A stretch of DNA of 64,000 nucleotides from Pseudomonadota bacterium (GTDB taxonomy: Bacteria > Pseudomonadota > Gammaproteobacteria > Pseudomonadales > Halieaceae), in the NCBI GenBank assembly GCA_039178015.1, contig JBCDFM010000003.1:475-64474 (forward strand). The letters run 5' to 3'. Made by a program: the position numbers and the translations under genes. Of the stretch, positions 4,376 through 19,575 are shown piece by piece. Numbering within the stretch: the first letter of the stretch is position 1; every line of letters starts with the position of its first letter. The notes below the pieces were generated by a model. It made no database searches. It was not told the origin of the DNA and saw nothing but the letters and a program-made list of their open reading frames with translations.

Positions 4376-7243
4376 ATGCAGACAGAGACCACCACAGCAG
4401 CCAGTGTCACGGCCACTACAGGACGCGACACTGTTTCAACCACCACCAGCATTGCGGCGACCGCGCCAGGCCAACTGCGTGTTATCAAACGCAATGGCAC
4501 TGTAGTCCCGTTTGAGATGAGTAAGATTTCAGTGGCGATTACCAAGGCCTTCTTAGCCGTGGAGGGAGGTACGGCCGCCGCGTCCAGCCGCATTCATGAG
4601 ACAGTGGCCCGGCTGACAGAACAAGTGACATCAACGTTCAAACGGCGCATGCCCTCTGGTGGCACCATCCATATTGAAGATATTCAGGACCAGGTAGAGC
4701 TGTCCCTGATGCGAGCTGGTGAGCATAAAATCGCTCGCGACTATGTCATTTATCGCGAGGAGCAGGCGCGTAAACGGGCAGCTAAAGAAGCGCTCTCCCC
4801 GGCCACACAGGCGGTCGCGGGCAGTATTAATGTTATACAAGCTGATGGCAGTAGTGCGCCGCTTGATCTGGATCGGATCCATACGGTGGTGTCTGAGGCC
4901 TGCTTTGAGCTCTCCGATGTCAATGAAACCACTATTCTGGACGAAGCACTGCGCAACTTATACGACGGAGTGACAGCAGACGAGCTGAGTACGTCCCTGG
5001 TGATCACAGCGCGTACCATGATCGAGCAGGAACCGAATTATAGCTATGTCGCAGCGCGCCTATTGTGCGACAACCTGCGAGCAGAAGCTCTCAACTTTCT
5101 TGGTATCGCGAAAAGTGCTACACAGGCGGACATGGGTACGCTTTACGCAAGCGCTTTAGCTGCCTATGTCCAAAAGGGTGTCGAATTGGAATTACTCGCC
5201 CCCAATCTACTGGAGTTTGATCTCGAAAAGCTGGGTCAGGCTATTCTCCCAGAGCGGGATTTGCAGTTCACCTACCTCGGATTGCAAACGCTCTATGACC
5301 GTTACTTTATTCACAGTGACGACATTCGGATAGAGCTGCCTCAGGTATTTTTCATGCGTGTCGCGATGGGGCTAGCCACCGAAGAGGATGATCGGAATGC
5401 CCGGGCCATAGAGTTTTACAGATTGCTATCTTCATTCGACTACATGAGTTCAACGCCGACACTATTTAATGCTGGAACCTTGCGCCCGCAATTATCTTCT
5501 TGCTATCTGACCACCGTGCCGGACGATCTTCACGGCATCTATGGCGCGATACAAGACAACGCCATGCTTTCCAAATTTGCCGGTGGCCTGGGTAATGACT
5601 GGACGCCGGTGCGTGCACTTGGAGCCTATATCAAAGGCACCAATGGTAAGTCGCAGGGTGTGGTGCCATTTTTGAAAGTAGTCAACGATACCGCCGTTGC
5701 GGTTAACCAGGGCGGCAAGCGCAAGGGCGCCGTCTGCTCTTACCTGGAAACATGGCACTTAGACATAGAAGAGTTTGTCGAACTGCGCAAAAACACAGGA
5801 GATGATCGTCGGCGTACCCACGACATGAATACAGCGAACTGGATTCCTGATTTGTTCATGAAGCGAGTCTTCGATGGTGGCGACTGGACACTGTTTTCGC
5901 CCAACGATGTACCCGATCTACACGACCTCTATGGCAAGGCGTTCGAACAACGGTACGAGCAGTATGAAGCGATGACCGTCAGTGGCGAAATCAAACTCTA
6001 CAAGACGGTAAAGGCAGAAAATTTGTGGCGCAAAATGCTGGGCATGTTGTTCGAAACAGGTCATCCATGGATGACCTTCAAAGACCCCTGCAATCTGCGC
6101 TCCCCACAGCAGCATGTGGGTGTGGTCCATTCGTCCAACCTGTGCACAGAAATCACCTTGAATACGAACAAGGATGAGATCGCCGTCTGTAATCTTGGCT
6201 CTATTAACCTGCCACAGCACATCAACGAAAATGGACTTGACCTGGATAAGCTGCGCAACACGGTTAGAACCGCCGTGCGCATGTTGGACAATGTAATCGA
6301 TATCAACTACTACTCCGTCAACCAGGCACAAAATTCCAACTTTCTGCACCGCCCGGTTGGTTTAGGCTTAATGGGATTCCAGGACGCGCTGTACAAGCAG
6401 CATATCGCATACGGCTCAGAGGATGCCGTTACCTTTGCCGATCGCTCCATGGAAGCGATCAGCTATTACGCAATCGAAGCTTCCAGCGAACTGGCAACTG
6501 AGCGCGGAGCCTACTCCAGCTATGAGGGTTCACTCTGGAGTCAAGGCATATTCCCAATTGACTCGCTGGATCGTCTCAGCGAAGAGCGTGGCGAAAAATA
6601 TATCCAGGTCGATCGCAGCCAGATATTGGATTGGTCAACGCTGAGAGAAAAGGTCAAAAGTCAGGGTATGCGAAACTCAAACGTGATGGCGATCGCACCC
6701 ACGGCAACGATCGCCAACATCACAGGCGTTTCGCAATCAATAGAACCCACCTATCAAAACCTATATGTAAAATCGAATCTCTCAGGCGAATTTACTGTGG
6801 TTAACCCCTATTTGGTGAACGACCTCAAGACAGCAGACCTTTGGGATCAGGTAATGGTTAATGATCTCAAATACTATGACGGTAGCGTACAGGCTATTGA
6901 TCGGATACCTAACGAACTGAAAGCAATCTATGCAACCGCTTTCGAGGTCGAACCGCGCTGGCTGGTAGAGTCTGCGAGTCGCCGGCAAAAATGGATTGAC
7001 CAGGCTCAGTCTCTGAACCTGTATATCAATAACGCCAATGGCAAAAAGTTGGACATCACCTATCGTATGGCCTGGTTCAGCGGTTTGAAGACGACATATT
7101 ACCTGCGGTCACTGGCTGCAACAGGCACGGAGAAATCCACCATCGACACCGGGCAGCTGAATGCAGTGGCCAGTGAAGCAGCGCCGGCACCGGTACCTGC
7201 AGCCTGTTCGCTGGATGACCCGGATTGCGAAGCATGTCAGTAA
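4376..7243 (+). CDS. nrdA: Class Ia ribonucleoside-diphosphate reductase alpha subunit
   Basis: 955 aa with an N-terminal ATP-cone (VIKRNGTVVPFEMSKI), the catalytic NLCTEI motif and a C-terminal redox Cys pair (CSLDDPDCEACQ). Confidence 0.97.
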   Translation: MQTETTTAASVTATTGRDTVSTTTSIAATAPGQLRVIKRNGTVVPFEMSKISVAITKAFLAVEGGTAAASSRIHETVARLTEQVTSTFKRRMPSGGTIHIEDIQDQVELSLMRAGEHKIARDYVIYREEQARKRAAKEALSPATQAVAGSINVIQADGSSAPLDLDRIHTVVSEACFELSDVNETTILDEALRNLYDGVTADELSTSLVITARTMIEQEPNYSYVAARLLCDNLRAEALNFLGIAKSATQADMGTLYASALAAYVQKGVELELLAPNLLEFDLEKLGQAILPERDLQFTYLGLQTLYDRYFIHSDDIRIELPQVFFMRVAMGLATEEDDRNARAIEFYRLLSSFDYMSSTPTLFNAGTLRPQLSSCYLTTVPDDLHGIYGAIQDNAMLSKFAGGLGNDWTPVRALGAYIKGTNGKSQGVVPFLKVVNDTAVAVNQGGKRKGAVCSYLETWHLDIEEFVELRKNTGDDRRRTHDMNTANWIPDLFMKRVFDGGDWTLFSPNDVPDLHDLYGKAFEQRYEQYEAMTVSGEIKLYKTVKAENLWRKMLGMLFETGHPWMTFKDPCNLRSPQQHVGVVHSSNLCTEITLNTNKDEIAVCNLGSINLPQHINENGLDLDKLRNTVRTAVRMLDNVIDINYYSVNQAQNSNFLHRPVGLGLMGFQDALYKQHIAYGSEDAVTFADRSMEAISYYAIEASSELATERGAYSSYEGSLWSQGIFPIDSLDRLSEERGEKYIQVDRSQILDWSTLREKVKSQGMRNSNVMAIAPTATIANITGVSQSIEPTYQNLYVKSNLSGEFTVVNPYLVNDLKTADLWDQVMVNDLKYYDGSVQAIDRIPNELKAIYATAFEVEPRWLVESASRRQKWIDQAQSLNLYINNANGKKLDITYRMAWFSGLKTTYYLRSLAATGTEKSTIDTGQLNAVASEAAPAPVPAACSLDDPDCEACQ

Positions 7244-7316: not shown

Positions 7317-8585
7317 ATGTTGAATTGGGACGACTACAACACAGCTGAAACAGCACCCGCCGCACCGGCTCCTGCAGCGCTTACGGAAGCTGAATCAGTA
7401 CCCGCTCTGGAAGCAGTAGCACCGGCACCGGAAGCCGAGTCACAAGCCGCTGCCGGGGCCAGCGCACAACCGCCGGCTGGACTAGAAGCAAATATCGCCA
7501 AAGCCCACGAAGCACTGGAGCAGATGGATGTCGCGCCCGGACTAGAGGAACTGGAAATGGGCGCGGCCAGGGTATCGGTCGACGAAAAGGCGATGATCAA
7601 CTGTCGCGCCGATCTCAATCAACTGGTGCCATTCAAATACGATTGGGCCTGGCAGAAATATATCGACGGCTGCGCTAATCACTGGATGCCTCAAGAAATA
7701 AACATGACGGCGGACGTCTCTACCTGGAAGAGTAAGGATGGTTTGACCGAAGACGAGCGCCGTATCGTGATGCGCAATCTGGGTTACTTCTCCACAGCTG
7801 ATTCGCTGGTGGCAAACAATTTGGTATTGGCTATCTACCGTCTCATCACCAACCCAGAGTGTCGCCAATATATACTCCGGCAAGCGTTTGAAGAGGCAAT
7901 CCACACGCATGCTTACCAATACTGCATAGAGTCTTTAGGTATGGACGAGGGTGAAGTATTCAACATGTACCGCGAGATTCCCTCAGTGGCCAAAAAGGCG
8001 GCGTGGAGTATCAGCCACACCCACGCACTGAGCGATCCAAAGTTCAAGACCGGTACACATGAGACCGATCAAGAGCTGCTGCGAAATCTGATCGGCTTCT
8101 ACGCCGTGACGGAGGGGATCTTTTTCTACTGTGGATTCACCCAAATCTTGTCCATGGGTCGGCGCAATAAAATGACCGGCGTTGCAGAGCAGTTTCAATA
8201 CATTCTGCGCGATGAATCCATGCATCTGAACTTCGGCATCGATGTCATCAATCAGATTAAACTGGAAAATCCACACCTGTGGACAGAGTCCTTCAAAGAA
8301 GAAGCGATACAGATGATTCTGGAAGGTACGCAACTGGAAATCGAATATGCGCGAGACACCATGCCGCGAGGCGTCCTGGGAATGAACGCTGGGATGATGG
8401 AGGAATACCTGCACTTCATTGCTAACAGACGACTGTCTCAACTCGGGTTACCTGAACAGTATCCCGGTGCACAGAACCCATTCCCGTGGATGTCGGAAAT
8501 TATGGATCTTCGTAAGGAGAAGAATTTCTTCGAAACCCGGGTAATTGAATACCAGACCGGAGGAGCCCTTAACTGGGGCGACTGA
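7317..8585 (+). CDS. nrdB: Class Ia ribonucleotide reductase beta subunit with long Ala/Pro/Glu-rich N-terminal extension (Pseudomonas type)
   Basis: 422 aa with diiron ligand motifs ([19 protein letters not shown]). [23 protein letters not shown] matches the Pseudomonas-type NrdB. Confidence 0.97.
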
Positions 8586-9017: not shown

Positions 9018-9545
9018 CTAGGCAACCTTGACGTGCTGTGAAGCGCTTTTTCTTCGGTTGCGAATAAAGGTTCCTAAGCCTATCGAGAGACGTCGATGGA
9101 TCGGCAGCCGATCAATAAAGAGTCTGCCCTCCAAGTGGTCCAGCTCATGCTGCAGACAGACTGCCTCCATGTCCTCCAGGTCGCGCTCGAAGACTCGCCC
9201 CTCACTATCACTGGCTCGTACTGTGACACGCGTGTCTCGCACTACATTTCCAATTACTCCGGGTACAGATAAACAGCTTTCCTCTACCAAGGCTGGGCGC
9301 TCGCGGCCGACTATTTCCGGGTTAATAAATATCTCCGCCGAGCTTCTGTCATCTGACAAGTCCATTATCAAGATACGGCGGAAGTCCCCGGCCTGGGGGG
9401 CAGAAAGGCCAATACCACCCGAGGCATAAAACGTTTCGACCAAATTATCTAGCGCCCGCTGGAGAGATGCGTCAAACTTTTCGACCGTGCGCGATTGCTG
9501 GCGTAATCGCTTATCGGGGTATTCAATCAACGGAAGCAGGGCCAT
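9018..9545 (-). CDS. def: Peptide deformylase (paralog-like, variant motif 2)
   Basis: 175 aa with GIGLSAPQ (motif 1), EESCLSVPG (motif 2, Gly to Ser) and QHELDHLEG (motif 3). AAGGAG RBS upstream. It lies 62 nt downstream of pucC on the same strand. Confidence 0.9.
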   Translation of the reverse strand: MALLPLIEYPDKRLRQQSRTVEKFDASLQRALDNLVETFYASGGIGLSAPQAGDFRRILIMDLSDDRSSAEIFINPEIVGRERPALVEESCLSVPGVIGNVVRDTRVTVRASDSEGRVFERDLEDMEAVCLQHELDHLEGRLFIDRLPIHRRLSIGLGTFIRNRRKSASQHVKVA

Positions 9546-9607
9546 AGCATTACTCCTTCTGGCGTCCTAATTCAGGGAATATCAGGCCTGTGAAGCAGAG
9601 GCAGCTC

Positions 9608-11041
9608 TCAGACCGTGGCATCGCGCATGTCTGCCCCTCTACCCAAAGCCGTGTCGTGTCTCACTGCGCCGGCTGCCTCTCGAATCAGAGGCCAGGTAGC
9701 GATAATCGCGATGACTAATAGTGCCATCTCTAGCGCGTAAACAGTCAAATAGCCGCCGGCAACCGACGGGAAGCCCCAGAGCTCGCCACCTTCTGTGATC
9801 AATGCGTTAACCACATCTCGTAGTGTTCCGCTAAGTGCCATGCCGATTCCCACGGCCGTGGCTTGTACAGCTCCCCATGAGCCTAAAGCCAACCCCACCT
9901 GCTCTTTAGGGGCGCGGTTCATCGCAGCTGTCAGCGTCCCGTGACTGAACAAAGCTGTACCAAAGCCGATTCCGAAATTACCCGCTAAAAACAAGATCGT
10001 CATATCGCTTGGCACAGCAGCGATCACTAACAGGAAGGCAGGAAGACCTATGAGTGCACCCAACTGTGCTACCCGATAGGGTTCACTCCCCCGCCCAAGC
10101 ACATGCGATGCATAGCCAAATCCCATTAGGCCACCGAGTGCCAGCAGCGCAGTCAGCAGCGTTGTAGAGCTCACGGTAAGGCCCAAGACCTGTCCGCCGA
10201 ATGGTTCAAGTAGAATATCAGCCATCCCAAACGCCATGCTGCCCAAGCCAACAACTACTAGACGCCTTATGGCATAGCTGCCAGCGCAGAAATCACGCCA
10301 AGAGTCGCGAAAGCTCGGATCTTCTACCACAGGCGCTCTTCCCCTTGGCGGGTTACGCGCTTCTTGCTTCCAGATCGCAATAACGTTTAGCAATAAACAG
10401 CTGACGGCAGCAGCCTGGATCACCTGCACTAATTTGCTATGCGAAAAGTCTTCCAAGGCCATCCCAAAAATCAGCGCGCTGATCATCATGCCCAGTAGCA
10501 GCATCACATACATCAACCCTACTACCCGAGGTTGAGATTCTTGCGGTGATAAATCCGTCGCTAGCGCTAAGCCCGCCGTCTGCACCGTATGAATTCCCGC
10601 CCCCACCAGCAGAAATGCAAAACCCGCAGCGAGCTGTCCGACTATGACAGGTGCATTAGAAGCCTGTCCTTGACCTCCCAATACCAAGAGCGCAAATGGC
10701 ATAATGGCGAAACCACCGAACTGCAACAGCGACCCTTTCCAAACAAACGGCACACGGCGCCACCCCAGCTCACATCGGTGCGTATCTGATTTAAAGCCGA
10801 TAACAGCACGCAGCGGAGCAAATAAAACCGGAAGAGCTAACATGATGCCCACGAGTGTGGCAGGCACATTCAGCTCGACGATCATTACCCTGTTGAGAGT
10901 TCCTACCAGCAGCACCATCGACATACCGACAGACACCTGAAACAGCGAGAGTCGAATCAGACGATGTAGCGGTAGCTCTGGCGTTGCCACATCCGCGAAA
11001 GGTAAAAATCGCGAACCCAAGGTGGCCCATGCCATGACCAT
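9608..11041 (-). CDS. pucC: PucC / BCD-family (bacteriochlorophyll delivery) MFS protein
   Basis: N-terminus LFQVSVGMSMVLLVGTLNRVMIVELNVPATL...APLRAVIGFKSDTHRCELGWRRVPFVWKGSLLQFGGFAIMPFAL is the PucC/LhaA signature. The start is moved from 11101 to ATG 11041 (MVMAW...), which is preceded by GGAGAAAAGG. It lies downstream of pucBA. Confidence 0.85.
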   Translation of the reverse strand: MVMAWATLGSRFLPFADVATPELPLHRLIRLSLFQVSVGMSMVLLVGTLNRVMIVELNVPATLVGIMLALPVLFAPLRAVIGFKSDTHRCELGWRRVPFVWKGSLLQFGGFAIMPFALLVLGGQGQASNAPVIVGQLAAGFAFLLVGAGIHTVQTAGLALATDLSPQESQPRVVGLMYVMLLLGMMISALIFGMALEDFSHSKLVQVIQAAAVSCLLLNVIAIWKQEARNPPRGRAPVVEDPSFRDSWRDFCAGSYAIRRLVVVGLGSMAFGMADILLEPFGGQVLGLTVSSTTLLTALLALGGLMGFGYASHVLGRGSEPYRVAQLGALIGLPAFLLVIAAVPSDMTILFLAGNFGIGFGTALFSHGTLTAAMNRAPKEQVGLALGSWGAVQATAVGIGMALSGTLRDVVNALITEGGELWGFPSVAGGYLTVYALEMALLVIAIIATWPLIREAAGAVRHDTALGRGADMRDATV

Positions 11042-11058
11042 CCTTTTCTCCAGGCGAT

Positions 11059-11181
11059 TCACTGAACGACACCCCACGCAAGACCGGTTAAGGAAAACCA
11101 AACAATAAAAACAACCACTGTGCTCAAGGAGAAGCGCGGCTGAAGAAGGCCCATATCATCAAACAAGCAAACAGCTGACAT
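11059..11181 (-). CDS. Candidate 40-aa single-TM peptide upstream of pucC (speculative)
   Basis: Hand translation gives MSAVCLFDDMGLLQPRFSLSTVVVFIVWFSLTGLAWGVVQ. The stop lies 17 nt before the pucC ATG. RBS is weak and there is no homology evidence. Confidence 0.2.
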   Translation of the reverse strand: MSAVCLFDDMGLLQPRFSLSTVVVFIVWFSLTGLAWGVVQ

Positions 11182-11234: not shown

Positions 11235-11852
11235 TCAGCGTTCCTTATTACGAATAAGTAACGGTAGACCAAAACTCGAGCTTCGCTCGCCTTTAGGTTT
11301 AGTCAGCAGGGGTATGCCAAAGCTACTCTCTTTCTTTTTTTTCTCCGTCAAGGGCTTCAACCCAATCATGGAAGACAGTGGCGTAGGACCCTTACTCAGA
11401 CCACTGCCAAACATGAGCCAACTGCTTCGCGTGAGTGGGGGAAACAAGCGCGAGAGCATGCTTAGCCTGCGCGTTGCAAGAGCTGGCATTCCAATCAAAG
11501 AGGAAAGCGGCGTAGGGTTTCTGGGCGCAACCTGCGGGGAACCACCTGCATCCAGCGGGTTGGCGGATTCCAGTGCACTGGTAGCGCTCGCACCGGTGCC
11601 AAACTCAGCGTTCACTACAACAATATGGCGCCCTTGCGCTAAACCGCGAGAAAACACTACTGCCAGACTGCCGTTTAATTCCTCCACGCCGACATCGACT
11701 TTTTTAATCAAGCCAGCAGGCGTAATGGTTTCACCCATCACATCGGGACTGACATGAACAATCAGTTCATCCTTAAAACCTCGATCAAGCAGCGCTTGTA
11801 CCGCAGCGGCGGCTTGCTCACCAGTTTGGTACATCCGTCCAACGTAGGCCAT
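11235..11852 (-). CDS. Uncharacterised protein inside the puc locus: globular N-domain plus C-terminal repeated [ST][ST]-x-x-G-x-P-x-L motifs
   Basis: 205-aa ORF with a GAGAGG RBS. C-terminal repeats are PTPLSSLIGMPAL, PTPLSSMIGLKPL, SSFGIPLL and SSFGLPLL. It is on the same strand as pucA and pucC and lies between them. Confidence 0.6.
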   Translation of the reverse strand: MAYVGRMYQTGEQAAAAVQALLDRGFKDELIVHVSPDVMGETITPAGLIKKVDVGVEELNGSLAVVFSRGLAQGRHIVVVNAEFGTGASATSALESANPLDAGGSPQVAPRNPTPLSSLIGMPALATRRLSMLSRLFPPLTRSSWLMFGSGLSKGPTPLSSMIGLKPLTEKKKKESSFGIPLLTKPKGERSSSFGLPLLIRNKER

Positions 11853-12018
11853 AGGCGCCTCTCATAGAGCTTGTTAGCAATACATCTTCTATGGCTCTCC
11901 CAAAAGAGAAAGCCGGTCACATTTGCACCACCGACGAGCGACGCACCAGTGAACCGAGTGCGCCGGCGCCCGTGGAGCTGATGGACTACCCCACCTTCAT
12001 ACCGCGTATTGGTCGCAC

Positions 12019-12039
12019 GCTAGATAGCACTTATCTAGC
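12019..12039 (-). other. Stem-loop downstream of pucA (possible mRNA-stabilising or attenuating hairpin)
   Basis: Perfect 8-bp stem GCTAGATA / TATCTAGC with a 5-nt loop, 46 nt after the pucA stop. There is no U-tract, so it is not a canonical intrinsic terminator. Confidence 0.3.
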
Positions 12040-12084
12040 AGCAAGACTCGATAAACAAGCCTTACTAAATCAATCCCAGGCTCG

Positions 12085-12228
12085 CTATCCGCCCCAGAAT
12101 TGCGACATCCAACTCGTATTATTCAATATCAGGTAGTGTATTAGGAGTGAGGTGATGGCAGCACTGCTCAAGAACAGCGGCAAACCAACTGTGGGCTTAA
12201 CCACACACCAGATTCTTCCGTTATTCAT
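12085..12228 (-). CDS. pucA: Light-harvesting complex 2 (LH2) alpha polypeptide
   Basis: Hand-translated 47 aa: MNNGRIWCVVKPTVGLPLFLSSAAITSLLIHYLILNNTSWMSQFWGG. It aligns without gaps to Rhodobacter LH2 alpha (M.NGKIW.VVKPTVG.PLFLS.A.I.S..IH) with His31 conserved. The ATG lies 11 nt after the pucB stop, behind GGAGATAGAGA. It is below the ORF-track cutoff. Confidence 0.88.
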   Translation of the reverse strand: MNNGRIWCVVKPTVGLPLFLSSAAITSLLIHYLILNNTSWMSQFWGG

Positions 12229-12239
12229 TCTCTATCTCC

Positions 12240-12404
12240 TCATCCAAACCAGGGTGAATAAATGAACGCCAATGCGTGTGCGATCACTGCGATGAAGAAG
12301 AACACTCGCGAGCCGTCGATGACGTGCTTGTGAAGCTCTTCCGATTCTTTGATCGTCAGACCCGTGGGCCATACGCGATCTGGATCATCCAAGTCAGTAG
12401 CCAT
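12240..12404 (-). CDS. pucB: Light-harvesting complex 2 (LH2) beta polypeptide
   Basis: Hand-translated 54 aa: [54 protein letters not shown]. It matches LH beta chains (VWP.GLT..E.EE.HK, ..RVF, A.IAH.L, PW.G) including the BChl-binding His. Strong RBS GGAGGAAACTT-ATG. It is below the ORF-track cutoff. Confidence 0.9.
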
Positions 12405-12573: not shown

Positions 12574-12593
12574 GACTTCTTGTCATTCTATAC

Positions 12594-12611
12594 TGTAAAC
12601 TAAAGTTGACA
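12594..12611 (-). promoter_or_regulatory. Perfect TGT-N12-ACA palindrome (PpsR/CrtJ-type operator) upstream of pucB
   Basis: TGTAAACTAAAGTTGACA at 12594-12611, about 20 nt upstream of the candidate -35. A one-mismatch copy (TGT-N12-GCA) lies at 12488-12505. Confidence 0.35.
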
Positions 12612-12654
12612 TTCTGGAGATGGCGCTCCAAATCACCCCGCAAGCGGGCAGGCA

Positions 12655-13206
12655 CTATCGCGCGTCACGTAAAACCCAGGCATAACGGCGGCACTGGGCA
12701 TCTAATTCTTCTGGATTTCGCGTGGGTGAACATCTTCCCGGAGCCAACGAGGTCACATAAAGGGCCAAGCACTCTTCTTCACTCAGATCCTCCGGCGTTT
12801 TGTTGAAATAGTGCTTCGATCCATGAATCAGTCCGCGACCCCCTTCAAAAGGCAAGAAATGCATGTACAGAGCCAGCATCAACTTCCTCCCTAGACGCTT
12901 TGGTAGAAGGTAACGCCAAAGCAGCACGCGAGCCTGCATGACCTGCGCATCGGCGTCATCGCCCTCCAGGTGGACAATTACTTTACGGCAAACAATATGC
13001 GTAAAAGCGTCCTCTTGAAGACGTAAGACCAGCTTGACGAGCGCAGCAGGTGGTTCAAGTTCGCTCGGATTAAGTCGCTTGAGTAACCGATCGACCTCAG
13101 GCTGCAAGTCAAAATAGGCCGTCTTGCAATACCAGAACAACGCCACTAAGGCGACAAGGACAAATGCAATCATCAGCGCGAACAGCGCAAGCGGTAGAGA
13201 CATCAT
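12655..13206 (-). CDS. Membrane-anchored, degenerate GT51 (peptidoglycan transglycosylase)-like domain protein
   Basis: 183 aa with an N-terminal TM helix. QEDAFTHIV resembles the EDxxFxxH motif. LPFEGGRGLIHGSKHYFNKTPEDLSEEECLALYVTSLAPGR resembles the GT51 G.GxxGxxxAAxxYFxKxxxxLxxxExAxLAxxxxxP block. It is shorter than MtgA and lacks a clear GxSTITQQ motif. Confidence 0.45.
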   Translation of the reverse strand: MMSLPLALFALMIAFVLVALVALFWYCKTAYFDLQPEVDRLLKRLNPSELEPPAALVKLVLRLQEDAFTHIVCRKVIVHLEGDDADAQVMQARVLLWRYLLPKRLGRKLMLALYMHFLPFEGGRGLIHGSKHYFNKTPEDLSEEECLALYVTSLAPGRCSPTRNPEELDAQCRRYAWVLRDAR

Positions 13207-16212: not shown

Positions 16213-18360
16213 ATGATCTATCAGAGTGACGCACTATCGGTGAGACGCCTGGATGGCGACATCGCAGAACTCAACTTCGACTCGCAGGGCGAATCGGTCA
16301 ACAAGTTTGACAGACAAACAGTGACCAGCCTGACCGAGGCGCTGGAGGCGCTGGAATCAGAATCCGGTATCAAGGGCTTGCTTGTCACCAGCGCCAAAGG
16401 GGTTTTTATAGTGGGTGCCGATATCACCGAGTTTACAAGCTTGTTCGGTGCCACCAAAGAAGACATCAAACCGTTTACTGGCGTGAATAACGCCAACTTC
16501 AATCGTATCCAGAACCTGCCCTATCCCAGCTGTGCTGCGATCAACGGTGCCGCCATGGGTGGCGGCTTGGAAATCTGCTTGGCCTGCGATTTCAGAGTGA
16601 TGAGCACGACCGCAAGCATTGGCCTTCCTGAGACCAAACTCGGCATACTGCCTGGCTGGGGTGGCACAGTGCGACTACCGCGCATGCTGGGAGTGGACGA
16701 AGCCGTTACCTGGATGGCCACGGGAGCAGACAAAAGAGCTGACGCTGCCCTAAAGGCAGGGGCTGTGGATGCCATTGCTGAGCCAGAACAACTGCGTGAT
16801 ATCGCGCTGGCCACGCTAGCCAGTGGCGTCGATGGCAAGTTGGACTATCAGCGCCGGCGAGATGCCAAGAGCAGCCCGCTACCGCTTAATGAAACAGAGG
16901 CCATGATGTCATTCTTTACCATCAAAGCGATGGTCGCCGGCCAGGCGGGGAAAAACTATCCAGCCCCGGTCAAGGTCGTCGACGTCATCGAGCAGGCGCG
17001 CAGCATGAGCTTGGAGGATGCGCTGGACGTTGAGGCCGATGCCTTTGCTGAGCTGGCCACCACCCCAGTTGCCGCCGCTTTGGTTGGTATCTTCCTCTCA
17101 GACCAGTTATTGAGTAAAAAAGCCCGTGGCTGGGAAAAACAGGCCAGCAAGAGAATCGAGCGAGCCGCCGTGCTGGGTGCCGGCATCATGGGCGGCGGAA
17201 TCGCCTATCAATCGTCCTTGAAAGGCATACCTATCAAGATGAAAGATATCGCTCAGGAGGGGCTGGATCTGGGGCTGAGTGAAGCCAACAAGCTGTTATC
17301 TAAGCGAGTCGCTCGCGGTCGGCTGACACCGGAAAAGATGGGTGGGATACTCAATAACATTGACCCTATGCTCAGCTATGAAAACTTTGATAGCGTCGAC
17401 ATCGTGGTCGAGGCCGTGGTGGAAAATCCAAAGGTAAAACACGCGGTACTGGCCGAAACTGAAAAACAGATCCGCGAAGACGCCATACTCGCTTCCAACA
17501 CGTCCACTATATCCATTAGCTACCTGGCCGAAGCGCTGGATAGACCGGAAAACTTTTGCGGAATGCACTTTTTCAATCCGGTGCACGCCATGCCGTTAGT
17601 GGAGGTAATCCGCGGTGAAAAGACGTCTGATAAAGCCATCGCGCAAACCGTAGCCTACGCCAACCGCATGGGAAAGAAAGCGGTGGTAGTCAACGATTGT
17701 CCTGGCTTTCTCGTGAACCGCGTCCTCTTCCCCTACTTCGATGGCTTCTCGAAACTAGTCCGAGACGGCGCAGATTTTCAGGTGGTGGATAAAGTGATGG
17801 AACGCTGGGGCTGGCCAATGGGGCCGGCATATCTTACCGATGTGGTGGGTATCGATACAGGCGTACATGCAGGACAGGTCATGGCTGAGGGCTTTCCGGA
17901 TCGCATGACCTTGGATTTCAAGACGCCTACGGAACTCATGTTCGAAAACGACCGCCTGGGGCAAAAGAACAACAAGGGCTTCTACGACTATGTACCGGAC
18001 AAACGCGGCAAGCCGAAAAAGACATCTTCAGAAGAGGCCTACAAAGTCATTGCTCCCAGTGCTGGAGACCGCGTGGAGTTCGAACGTGAAGATATCATTA
18101 TGCGCATGATGCTGCCTATGTGTACCGAGCTGGCTCGCTGTTTGGAGGAAGGGATCGTGGGATCGGCGGCAGAAGCTGACCTTGCGCTCGTGTATGGCGT
18201 TGGTTTCCCACCCTTTCGCGGTGGTATTTTCCGCTGGATGGACACGGTAGGCATGGCCTACATCGCTGATGCTTCCAAGAAATTTCAAGATTTGGGTAAA
18301 ACCTATGAGCTGACCGACGGCATGCAGGCAAAGCTCGACGCGGGCGAGACTTATTATTAA
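16213..18360 (+). CDS. fadB: Fatty acid oxidation complex alpha subunit (enoyl-CoA hydratase / 3-hydroxyacyl-CoA dehydrogenase)
   Basis: 715 aa with an N-terminal crotonase fold (AAINGAAMGGGLEICLACDFRV) and an NAD-binding GAGIMGGGIA dehydrogenase domain. fadA follows. Confidence 0.95.
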   Translation: MIYQSDALSVRRLDGDIAELNFDSQGESVNKFDRQTVTSLTEALEALESESGIKGLLVTSAKGVFIVGADITEFTSLFGATKEDIKPFTGVNNANFNRIQNLPYPSCAAINGAAMGGGLEICLACDFRVMSTTASIGLPETKLGILPGWGGTVRLPRMLGVDEAVTWMATGADKRADAALKAGAVDAIAEPEQLRDIALATLASGVDGKLDYQRRRDAKSSPLPLNETEAMMSFFTIKAMVAGQAGKNYPAPVKVVDVIEQARSMSLEDALDVEADAFAELATTPVAAALVGIFLSDQLLSKKARGWEKQASKRIERAAVLGAGIMGGGIAYQSSLKGIPIKMKDIAQEGLDLGLSEANKLLSKRVARGRLTPEKMGGILNNIDPMLSYENFDSVDIVVEAVVENPKVKHAVLAETEKQIREDAILASNTSTISISYLAEALDRPENFCGMHFFNPVHAMPLVEVIRGEKTSDKAIAQTVAYANRMGKKAVVVNDCPGFLVNRVLFPYFDGFSKLVRDGADFQVVDKVMERWGWPMGPAYLTDVVGIDTGVHAGQVMAEGFPDRMTLDFKTPTELMFENDRLGQKNNKGFYDYVPDKRGKPKKTSSEEAYKVIAPSAGDRVEFEREDIIMRMMLPMCTELARCLEEGIVGSAAEADLALVYGVGFPPFRGGIFRWMDTVGMAYIADASKKFQDLGKTYELTDGMQAKLDAGETYY

Positions 18361-19575
<1,215 letters not shown>

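Follow-up and report, generated by a model that had tools for sequence, protein, structure and literature searches.

We analyzed a 64,000-nucleotide stretch of contig JBCDFM010000003.1 (positions 475 to 64,474 of the forward strand) from the Halieaceae genome assembly GCA_039178015.1, here called the window, with attention to an open reading frame (ORF) at 11235-11852 that lies among genes for the peripheral light-harvesting antenna LH2 and that we refer to as X. An original prediction, made from the sequence by itself, had placed this ORF between pucA and pucC and had read it as a factor for LH2 assembly, organization or regulation. The placement is confirmed, with the minus strand added: the genes follow one another on one strand in the order pucB, pucA, X, pucC-family gene and peptide deformylase gene. 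The features of this module, in window coordinates, are as follows.

9018..9545, minus strand: peptide deformylase gene (def), last of the module (PF01327, E=7e-43)
9608..11101, minus strand: PucC-family assembly gene resembling the major facilitator superfamily (MFS), longest ORF (PF03209, E=1e-142)
11235..11852 (stop codon included), minus strand: gene X, an ATG-to-stop ORF for a 205-amino-acid protein
11853..12084, minus strand: pucA-X spacer with several RNA hairpins (RNA fold)
12085..12228, minus strand: pucA, LH2 alpha polypeptide (PF00556)
12240..12404, minus strand: pucB, LH2 beta polypeptide (PF00556)
12585..12612, minus strand: promoter-like site overlapped by a TGT-N12-ACA palindrome, 5' of pucB (consensus scans)

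The true start of the PucC-family gene is probably near 11038. X has a Shine-Dalgarno-like sequence, GAGAGG, 6-7 nt 5' of its start, and its product is identical to the protein 'hypothetical protein AAGF57_00650' of a metagenome-assembled genome (MAG). Compared with an ortholog of 79% identity, X has a ratio of nonsynonymous to synonymous substitution rates (dN/dS) of 0.08, with 0.07 over the first 100 codons and 0.086 over the tail; these values are approximate, as dS is near saturation in this pair, yet they are far below 1. Purifying selection acts on both halves of X. Tandem Repeats Finder detected no DNA-level tandem repeats in the gene, so the repeats described below are old at the nucleotide level.

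The family of X is large. When 1.84 billion representative proteins were searched exhaustively with phmmer, 458 clusters (formed at 50% identity) had hits at E<=1e-3, of which 159 reached E<=1e-10, and word-indexed searches gave 40 hits with the single sequence and 107 with a profile. Every family hit is named 'hypothetical protein' or 'uncharacterized' in its source. X has no credible match in Pfam or NCBIfam; in particular, it does not match PF03209 (PucC/LhaA, about 12 transmembrane helices), its maximal hydropathy lying below the transmembrane level, or PF00556 (antenna polypeptides, with a single transmembrane helix and a bacteriochlorophyll-ligating His), having no transmembrane segment. 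No description of the family or of its LH2 association was found in the curated libraries, the source annotations or the full-text literature searched. The family and its strict association with LH2 genes therefore appear to be undescribed, as the original prediction had supposed. Its statement that no family could be assigned holds for Pfam and NCBIfam; it fails for the N-terminal head, which has remote YflT/TIGR02271 relatives.

The association with LH2 genes was examined from both sides. X-seeded loci (n=38) were contigs with family members over the full similarity range, supplemented by a motif-pattern scan of one genome per GTDB species; the scan used a sub-alignment sharing G[LFM]PLLSRNP[AT] and so samples only motif-bearing members. 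X adjoins pucBA and/or pucC in all 38 and is found apart from them in none; a single contig, 3.4 kb long, contains only X. Several of these loci also have reaction-center genes or photosynthesis gene cluster regulators nearby. For the reverse direction, metagenome contigs were scanned with an alignment of PucB only, so that X had no influence on the choice of loci. The scan gave at least 349 stretches coding for PucB relatives, and we retained the best 80. Of these, 64 have a visible X. A view was counted as complete when the contig extended 1.1 kb or more upstream of pucB and 0.9 kb or more beyond pucC; all 25 such loci have X, and the other 16 of the 80, in which X is not visible, are each truncated on a side where it could lie. 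The linkage of X to pucBA/pucC is thus obligate and co-directional in both search directions. Homologs unlinked to puc genes, which the original prediction had named among the observations that would count against it, were found in neither the X-seeded nor the fully visible PucB-seeded loci.

The linkage holds through rearrangement. In the 25 complete loci, X shares the strand of the puc genes without exception and occurs in three gene orders: X-B-A-C-def (11 of 25), B-A-X-C-def (7 of 25) and B-A-C-X without def (7 of 25). Because X remains co-directional in all three, the linkage points to selection rather than to shared ancestry of a single arrangement. Every locus of sufficient length has a PucC-family gene beside X or pucA. 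X was recorded in 102 loci altogether (forming 88 clusters at 90% identity), and the named hosts include Myxococcota MAGs, Alphaproteobacteria (Algihabitans albus, Algihabitans sp., Kiloniellales, Rhodospirillaceae and Aestuariivirga litoralis), Gammaproteobacteria (Congregibacter sp., a Chromatiaceae MAG and others) and Betaproteobacteria (Burkholderiales). X thus shows the co-directional adjacency, conserved across distant lineages, by which we delimit a puc-operon accessory gene. Across the X-seeded loci that were fetched first (L001-L032), identity to the window proteins is 67-83% for PucB and 58-71% for PucC, compared with 23-40% for X. Given this wide host spread and the conservation of PucB and PucC, the pucBA-X-pucC(-def) module looks horizontally mobile. 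The order is interrupted in a Rhodospirillaceae MAG, where a 2.2-kb insertion without a Pfam-recognizable ORF separates X from pucC (L021, 6693-8910).

Where the antenna genes are duplicated, X is duplicated with them. Seven loci have two pucBA pairs and extra X paralogs with one pucC and one def (L026, L027, L028, L056, L063, L064 and L099); the order is X-BA-X-BA-C-def in L026 and L028, and L027 has three X copies. The X paralogs are 38-52% identical to one another, compared with 81-100% for the flanking PucA/PucB pairs. X therefore pairs with pucBA rather than with pucC, which points to the alpha-beta polypeptides as its partner. In L028, a gammaproteobacterial MAG, the second PucA has a different C-terminal region and may be a spectral variant. 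This locus (9395-9601, 68 amino acids) and Aestuariivirga litoralis (L033, 6143-6424, 93 amino acids) have PucA polypeptides with long C-terminal extensions; the usual length is about 47 amino acids.

The X protein consists of a globular head and a repeat-bearing tail, with the following parts (aa, amino acids; bit scores are from a position matrix built from the family repeats).

11553..11852, minus strand: N-terminal globular domain, YflT-like, aa 1-100 (AlphaFold2)
11238..11552, minus strand: basic Ser/Pro/Leu-rich tail, aa 101-205, predicted disordered (predicted local distance difference test score, pLDDT, 50-65)
11475..11519, minus strand: motif copy 1, NPTPLSSLIGMPALA, aa 112-126 (15.6 bits)
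11409..11468, minus strand: distinct motif RLSMLSRLFPPLTRSSWLMF, aa 129-148, common to close relatives and not a copy of the core motif
11346..11390, minus strand: motif copy 2, GPTPLSSMIGLKPLT, aa 155-169 (19.1 bits)
11301..11327, minus strand: motif copy 3, SSFGIPLLT, aa 176-184 (23.4 bits)
11253..11279, minus strand: motif copy 4, SSFGLPLLI, aa 192-200 (20.9 bits)

Both halves have the general character that had been read from the sequence, a globular N-terminal domain of about 100 residues and a basic C-terminal half. AlphaFold2, run with a 50-sequence alignment, models residues 1-100 at pLDDT 93-98 with the topology b-a-b-a-a-a-b-a. The head lies at the extreme N-terminus in all 269 retrieved proteins (267 family members and two outlying TIGR02271 proteins), starts at or before residue 12 in 99% of them and is present in two copies in 15. 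Since the head starts the protein directly, a signal peptide or any other N-terminal module is absent from the family. The head is acidic.

Several profile comparisons relate the head to the N-terminal domain of YflT/TIGR02271 stress proteins. In a Pfam scan, 23 of 50 family members had weak, sub-threshold matches to PF11181 (YflT) at E<=5, the best at 8.4e-5; window X itself had no hit at E<=1, the gathering score being 26.2 bits. On direct re-scan the best family member, P0246, reached 26.0 bits, and the precomputed annotation of the database lists PF11181 there. A family profile search pulls in two TIGR02271/DUF2382 proteins at E ~1e-5, and hhalign of family alignment A1 against residues 1-96 of the TIGR02271 protein P0261 gave 96.4% and E=1.3e-9 over 96 columns. 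Judged by profile similarity, which extends over the whole domain, the head is remotely related to the YflT/TIGR02271 N-domain. The likeness is confined to the N-terminal ~96 residues of these proteins (YflT being 'general stress protein 17M-like', PF11181); in them the domain is followed by DUF2382 or other stress modules, with no link to photosynthesis. A PII/GlnB-like fold was considered for the head and rejected: the top Foldseek hits in the PDB were PII/GlnK at E 0.2-1 (target-normalized TM-score 0.45-0.58), none was at or below 0.001, and the predicted order of elements differs from what we take to be that of the PII fold. Nor did the family profile retrieve anything below E=0.27 among PDB sequences.

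The tail of window X has a net charge of +12 and an isoelectric point (pI) of 11.6. Across the family, tails contain 15% Ser, 15.5% Leu and 11% Pro, are net-positive in 83% of members and have a median pI of 10.2. The maximal 19-residue hydropathy is 1.13 in window X, below the transmembrane level (family median 1.12), and neither window X nor ~96% of the family has a transmembrane-like segment; no signal peptide was detected. The motif consensus is SS-[FL]-G-[LMI]-[PK]-[LVT]-L-[ST], often extended to NP[AT]P[LF]SS-x-[LF]-G-[LM]-P-x-L-S, and the copies, between zero and 12 per family member (median 3), are often separated by Lys/Arg-rich spacers. Motif-type peptides of X tails include SSFGLPLLS and NPAPLSSLFGLPLLS.

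The original prediction had counted five copies of one motif in window X. All the peptides that it quoted are present, and their repetition is beyond chance, the observed near-identical 8-mer pairs being reached by 2 of 5000 composition-preserving shuffles; the count resolves into four core copies and a distinct fifth motif, RLSMLSRLFPPL, which occurs in close relatives (e.g. as SxLSRLFGELxSPxFALFG). The cores of copies 1 and 2 are SLIGMPALA at aa 118 and SMIGLKPLT at aa 161. Across 50 homologs the best-conserved tail columns are the motif positions, with at least 90% conservation in the family at P115, S117 and L125 of copy 1, G179, L182 and L183 of copy 3, and L199 of copy 4. The nucleoporin FG-repeat model is grazed by 7 of 50 scanned family members, which we take as a reflection of composition, not homology. 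Docking by an amphipathic helix, one form of the membrane docking that the original prediction had offered beside short linear motifs, is disfavored for the tail motif, since the conserved Gly and Pro of the core make a helix unlikely; the Gly-x-Pro core argues for an extended peptide, and we favor the motif as an extended hydrophobic short linear motif. Mimicry of the PucA N-terminus (FGLPLL compared with VGLPLFL) was considered and rejected: PucA scores -7 bits, p ~0.4 per protein, a score equaled by 1.3% of background positions under the family-derived matrix.

The antenna polypeptides that accompany X are of a single kind. The PucA N-terminus MNxGRIWCVVxPTVGLPLFL (...H...) and PucB (...VWPTGLTI[RK]...AH...) are nearly invariant in X-linked loci, and the beta N-termini are strongly acidic (DLDDPDR...ESEE). 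In Rba. sphaeroides LH2, the B800 site on the cytoplasmic side is formed by alpha-COO-Met1, alpha-Asn3, beta-His22 and beta-Arg30 (PMC8775250). M1 and N3 of window PucA and H25 and R33 of window PucB occupy these positions when the sequences are compared by eye, without formal alignment, and we treat the X-linked antenna as a B800-850-type LH2. Because X has no export signal, it must reside in the cytoplasm, the side of the LH2 N-termini and of the B800 ring.

The deformylase gene has its own relation to this site. The window def has apparently intact catalytic motifs (GIGLSAPQ, EESCLS and HELDH). Def closes the module in every fully visible locus of the X-B-A-C-def and B-A-X-C-def classes (L001, L004-L032, L034, L035 and most of L036-L115) and is absent from the B-A-C-X class. 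To ligate B800, the LH2 alpha Met1 must lose its formyl group, be retained and be N-carboxylated (PMC8775250). It is therefore plausible that this abundant antenna polypeptide has a deformylase of its own; no description of such an enzyme was found in the literature searched.

Sequences between and upstream of the genes also resemble those of puc operons. The 232-nt pucA-X spacer has a predicted minimum free energy of -92.6 kcal/mol (z=-2.57 against shuffles), and its hairpins resemble the intercistronic stem-loops that set pucBA:pucC transcript ratios in classical puc operons. X in the window lies behind the pucA hairpins, like pucC, which is consistent with the sub-stoichiometric expression expected of an assembly factor. 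The sole sigma-70-like promoter match of the region is ~180 bp upstream of pucB, and the palindrome at 12594-12611 has the form of PpsR/CrtJ repressor sites. TGT-N12-ACA occurs 10 times in the window against 12 expected, not above chance, and the promoter-like site and palindrome are suggestive of a regulatory site without being significant.

As far as gene association goes, the original reading of X as an LH2 factor is supported; the function of X would follow from gene context. That X is an LH2-dedicated accessory protein we consider highly likely; that it is, taken as a whole, a cytoplasmic LH2 assembly or organization factor we consider somewhat probable. We infer an action at the cytoplasmic face, a binding partner, a multivalent mechanism and a role in assembly or organization, as follows. 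X would be a soluble cytoplasmic protein dedicated to one horizontally mobile LH2 (B800-850-like) module, pucB-pucA-X-pucC(-def), and would act on the cytoplasmic side of the membrane, where both LH2 polypeptides have their N-termini and the B800 site is located. Each tail motif, of ~9-15 residues ((NP[AT]PL)SS-[FL]-G-[LM]-P-x-L-[ST]), would bind a single copy of a target that is itself repeated, most likely the alpha-beta unit of the LH2 ring, with oligomeric PucC or the membrane/lipid interface as alternative targets. The acidic beta N-termini could complement the basic tail, one X chain could hold several units by avidity, and X would thereby nucleate or stabilize ring assembly, or organize assembled rings.

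A number of observations weigh against this interpretation. Model organisms with a classical LH2 operon, such as Rba. sphaeroides (pucBAC), are not known to have X there, and no Rhodobacter or Rhodopseudomonas names are among the family hits listed, which would make X specific to this LH2 lineage and not generally required for LH2 assembly. The tail motif has no significant similarity to segments of the light-harvesting polypeptides (-7 bits and p ~0.4 for PucA, as above). In the X-B-A-C-def order a spacer of 300-400 bp separates X from pucB, and X may be transcribed independently there. The YflT-type domain offers no function that could be transferred by homology. The case for an LH2 role comes from genomes.

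The alternative closest to this proposal is that X is a stoichiometric, membrane-extrinsic LH2 subunit, a cytoplasmic 'gamma-like' cap or strap whose repeats would run across successive alpha-beta units of the finished ring. The strict pairing of X with pucBA and the extra X copies at duplicated pucBA would suit such a subunit, the repeat number of 0-12 falls in the range of ring subunit counts, and the extrinsic RC-S/RC-U polypeptides of Gemmatimonas, which hold a photosystem together, provide a precedent (PMC8849296). However, in B-A-X-C-def loci X lies behind the post-pucA hairpins, like pucC; its repeat number differs widely among close relatives whose PucA and PucB are almost invariant, a poor fit to a fixed ring geometry; and it evolves much faster than PucBA. 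We regard this possibility as unlikely.

X might instead be a regulator or stress-responsive modulator, with a head that senses light plus oxygen or heat and a tail that sequesters or releases a partner controlling puc expression, LH2 turnover or protection. This idea draws on the homology of the head to the N-domain of TIGR02271/YflT-type stress proteins, on the position of X upstream of the likely puc promoter region in X-B-A-C-def loci, and on neighbors of X in some genomes, namely a bacteriophytochrome and heme oxygenase (L011/L012) and a BLUF protein with a PAS-HTH_8 (PpsR-like) protein (L116). Such light/redox regulators adjoin X in few loci only, though; X has no DNA-binding, kinase, receiver or other signaling domain, and regulators are seldom duplicated along with each structural gene pair. 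A regulatory role is, in our judgment, quite unlikely. The light/redox sensing genes lie beside the module at 3834-7799 in L011/L012, at 3054-6415 in L116 and in L009-L012, and TspO is among the sensing genes that adjoin the module in some loci.

A further proposal would have X help the module deformylase to mature the PucA N-terminus, through Met1-retaining deformylation and subsequent N-carboxylation to the B800 ligand, for example by tethering nascent or newly inserted alpha polypeptides. The alpha-COO-Met1 ligates B800, and the N-carboxylation of alpha Met1 is inferred to have a mechanism for which no enzyme is named (PMC8775250); the terminal position of def in both def-containing gene orders fits the same idea. 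X has no recognizable catalytic motif, however, and the B-A-C-X class has X without def (7 of the 25 complete loci, as well as Aestuariivirga). To our knowledge, model organisms also carboxylate Met1 without X, and we consider this role improbable. That X is a chance or non-functional ORF, or a hitch-hiking passenger without a role in light harvesting, is highly improbable given its 159 clusters at E<=1e-10, its dN/dS of 0.08 and its persistence across phyla and despite three independent gene rearrangements.

Puc operons are already known to contain accessory genes; what is new is the architecture of X and its apparently obligate status in a widespread, mobile LH2 module. In Rhodobacter capsulatus, pucBACDE contains the extra genes pucD and pucE, whose products stabilize LH2 without binding pigment, PucE being a non-pigment gamma subunit. 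X is likewise an extra gene of a puc operon; no PucD- or PucE-named protein and no Rhodobacter homolog is among the 107 profile hits, and the architecture of X, a YflT-like head with motif repeats, is presumably unlike that of either. CsoS2 of the alpha-carboxysome and EPYC1 of the algal pyrenoid are basic disordered proteins with variable short repeats, each motif of which binds one copy of an oligomeric partner; CsoS2 is encoded with its structural genes and EPYC1 is a dedicated linker. X shares with them the predicted disorder, the basic charge and a variable count of conserved short motifs. It has no sequence relationship to either, and its proposed partner would be a membrane antenna, whereas theirs is soluble Rubisco.

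PucC contributes importantly to LH2 assembly without being essential, and it oligomerizes at the assembly sites (PMC4949548). PucC/LhaA proteins (PF03209) are LH2/LH1 assembly factors of puc or puh operons, and like them X is a non-pigment accessory gene with pucBA in the same class of operon position. PucC, however, is an MFS-like membrane protein with 12 transmembrane helices, whereas X is soluble, has no transmembrane segment or sequence similarity to PucC, and occurs besides PucC rather than replacing it. RC-S and RC-U of the Gemmatimonas phototrophica RC-dLH complex are membrane-extrinsic, lineage-specific and hold a photosynthetic complex together (PMC8849296). They differ from X in that RC-dLH is not LH2, no homology is shown and they were found by structure, X being known only from genomes. 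The likeness of X to CsoS2/EPYC1 and to RC-S/RC-U is an analogy, not a family assignment.

Outside the module, the window contains housekeeping genes, with nrdAB on one side and a fadB/fadA-like pair on the other. The neighboring features are as follows.

4376-7243, plus strand: ribonucleotide reductase large subunit (Pfam-confirmed)
7317-8585, plus strand: likely ribonucleotide reductase small subunit
12655-13206, minus strand: 183-aa ORF just 5' of the puc promoter region (PF00912, E=6.6e-9)
16213-19575, plus strand: fadB/fadA-like pair

The neighbors scanned, which extend to ~25 kb, include no photosynthesis gene cluster, and within that range the antenna module is an isolated island in the window genome, outside any such cluster. 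The match of the 183-aa ORF to the transglycosylase domain PF00912 is confined to the C-terminal half of that domain, and the ORF may be a truncated or divergent monofunctional glycosyltransferase. In a plasmid collection neither X nor PucB had a match. The PucC query matched only lhaA within photosynthesis gene clusters, so that the collection provides no negative control for classical puc operons; the window PucC-family protein is 49-58% identical to lhaA, in a bchM-lhaA-puhA context (L119-L121), on the ten plasmids matched, which include those of Roseobacter, Sulfitobacter, Thiodictyon and Novosphingobium.

LH2 is among the best-studied membrane protein complexes, and the assembly of its ring is only partly understood; PucC is the one dedicated factor that has been characterized, and it is not essential (PMC4949548). 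X is a fourth gene that travels with a very widespread type of LH2 (no fewer than 349 PucB relatives in metagenomes, and at least four major lineages) and is a candidate for a missing component of assembly or organization. Cultured carriers exist in Algihabitans albus ac2 (NZ_CP159482) and Aestuariivirga litoralis, so the role of X is directly testable. The compact mobile module pucBA-X-pucC(-def) may explain the spread of peripheral antennae among aerobic phototrophs, and it could also matter for transplanting LH2 into new hosts. As a more speculative extension, which we hold to be possible though rather doubtful, X may be the first case of a multivalent, intrinsically disordered 'linker' in a bacterial antenna, with each SS-F-G-L-P-L-L-S-type motif clasping one LH2 alpha-beta unit or ring on its cytoplasmic face. 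If so, one X chain would nucleate ring closure or glue LH2 rings into domains, and X, together with the PucC and deformylase of its module, would make up a self-contained, horizontally transferable 'plug-in antenna kit' for unrelated bacteria, from Myxococcota to Gammaproteobacteria.

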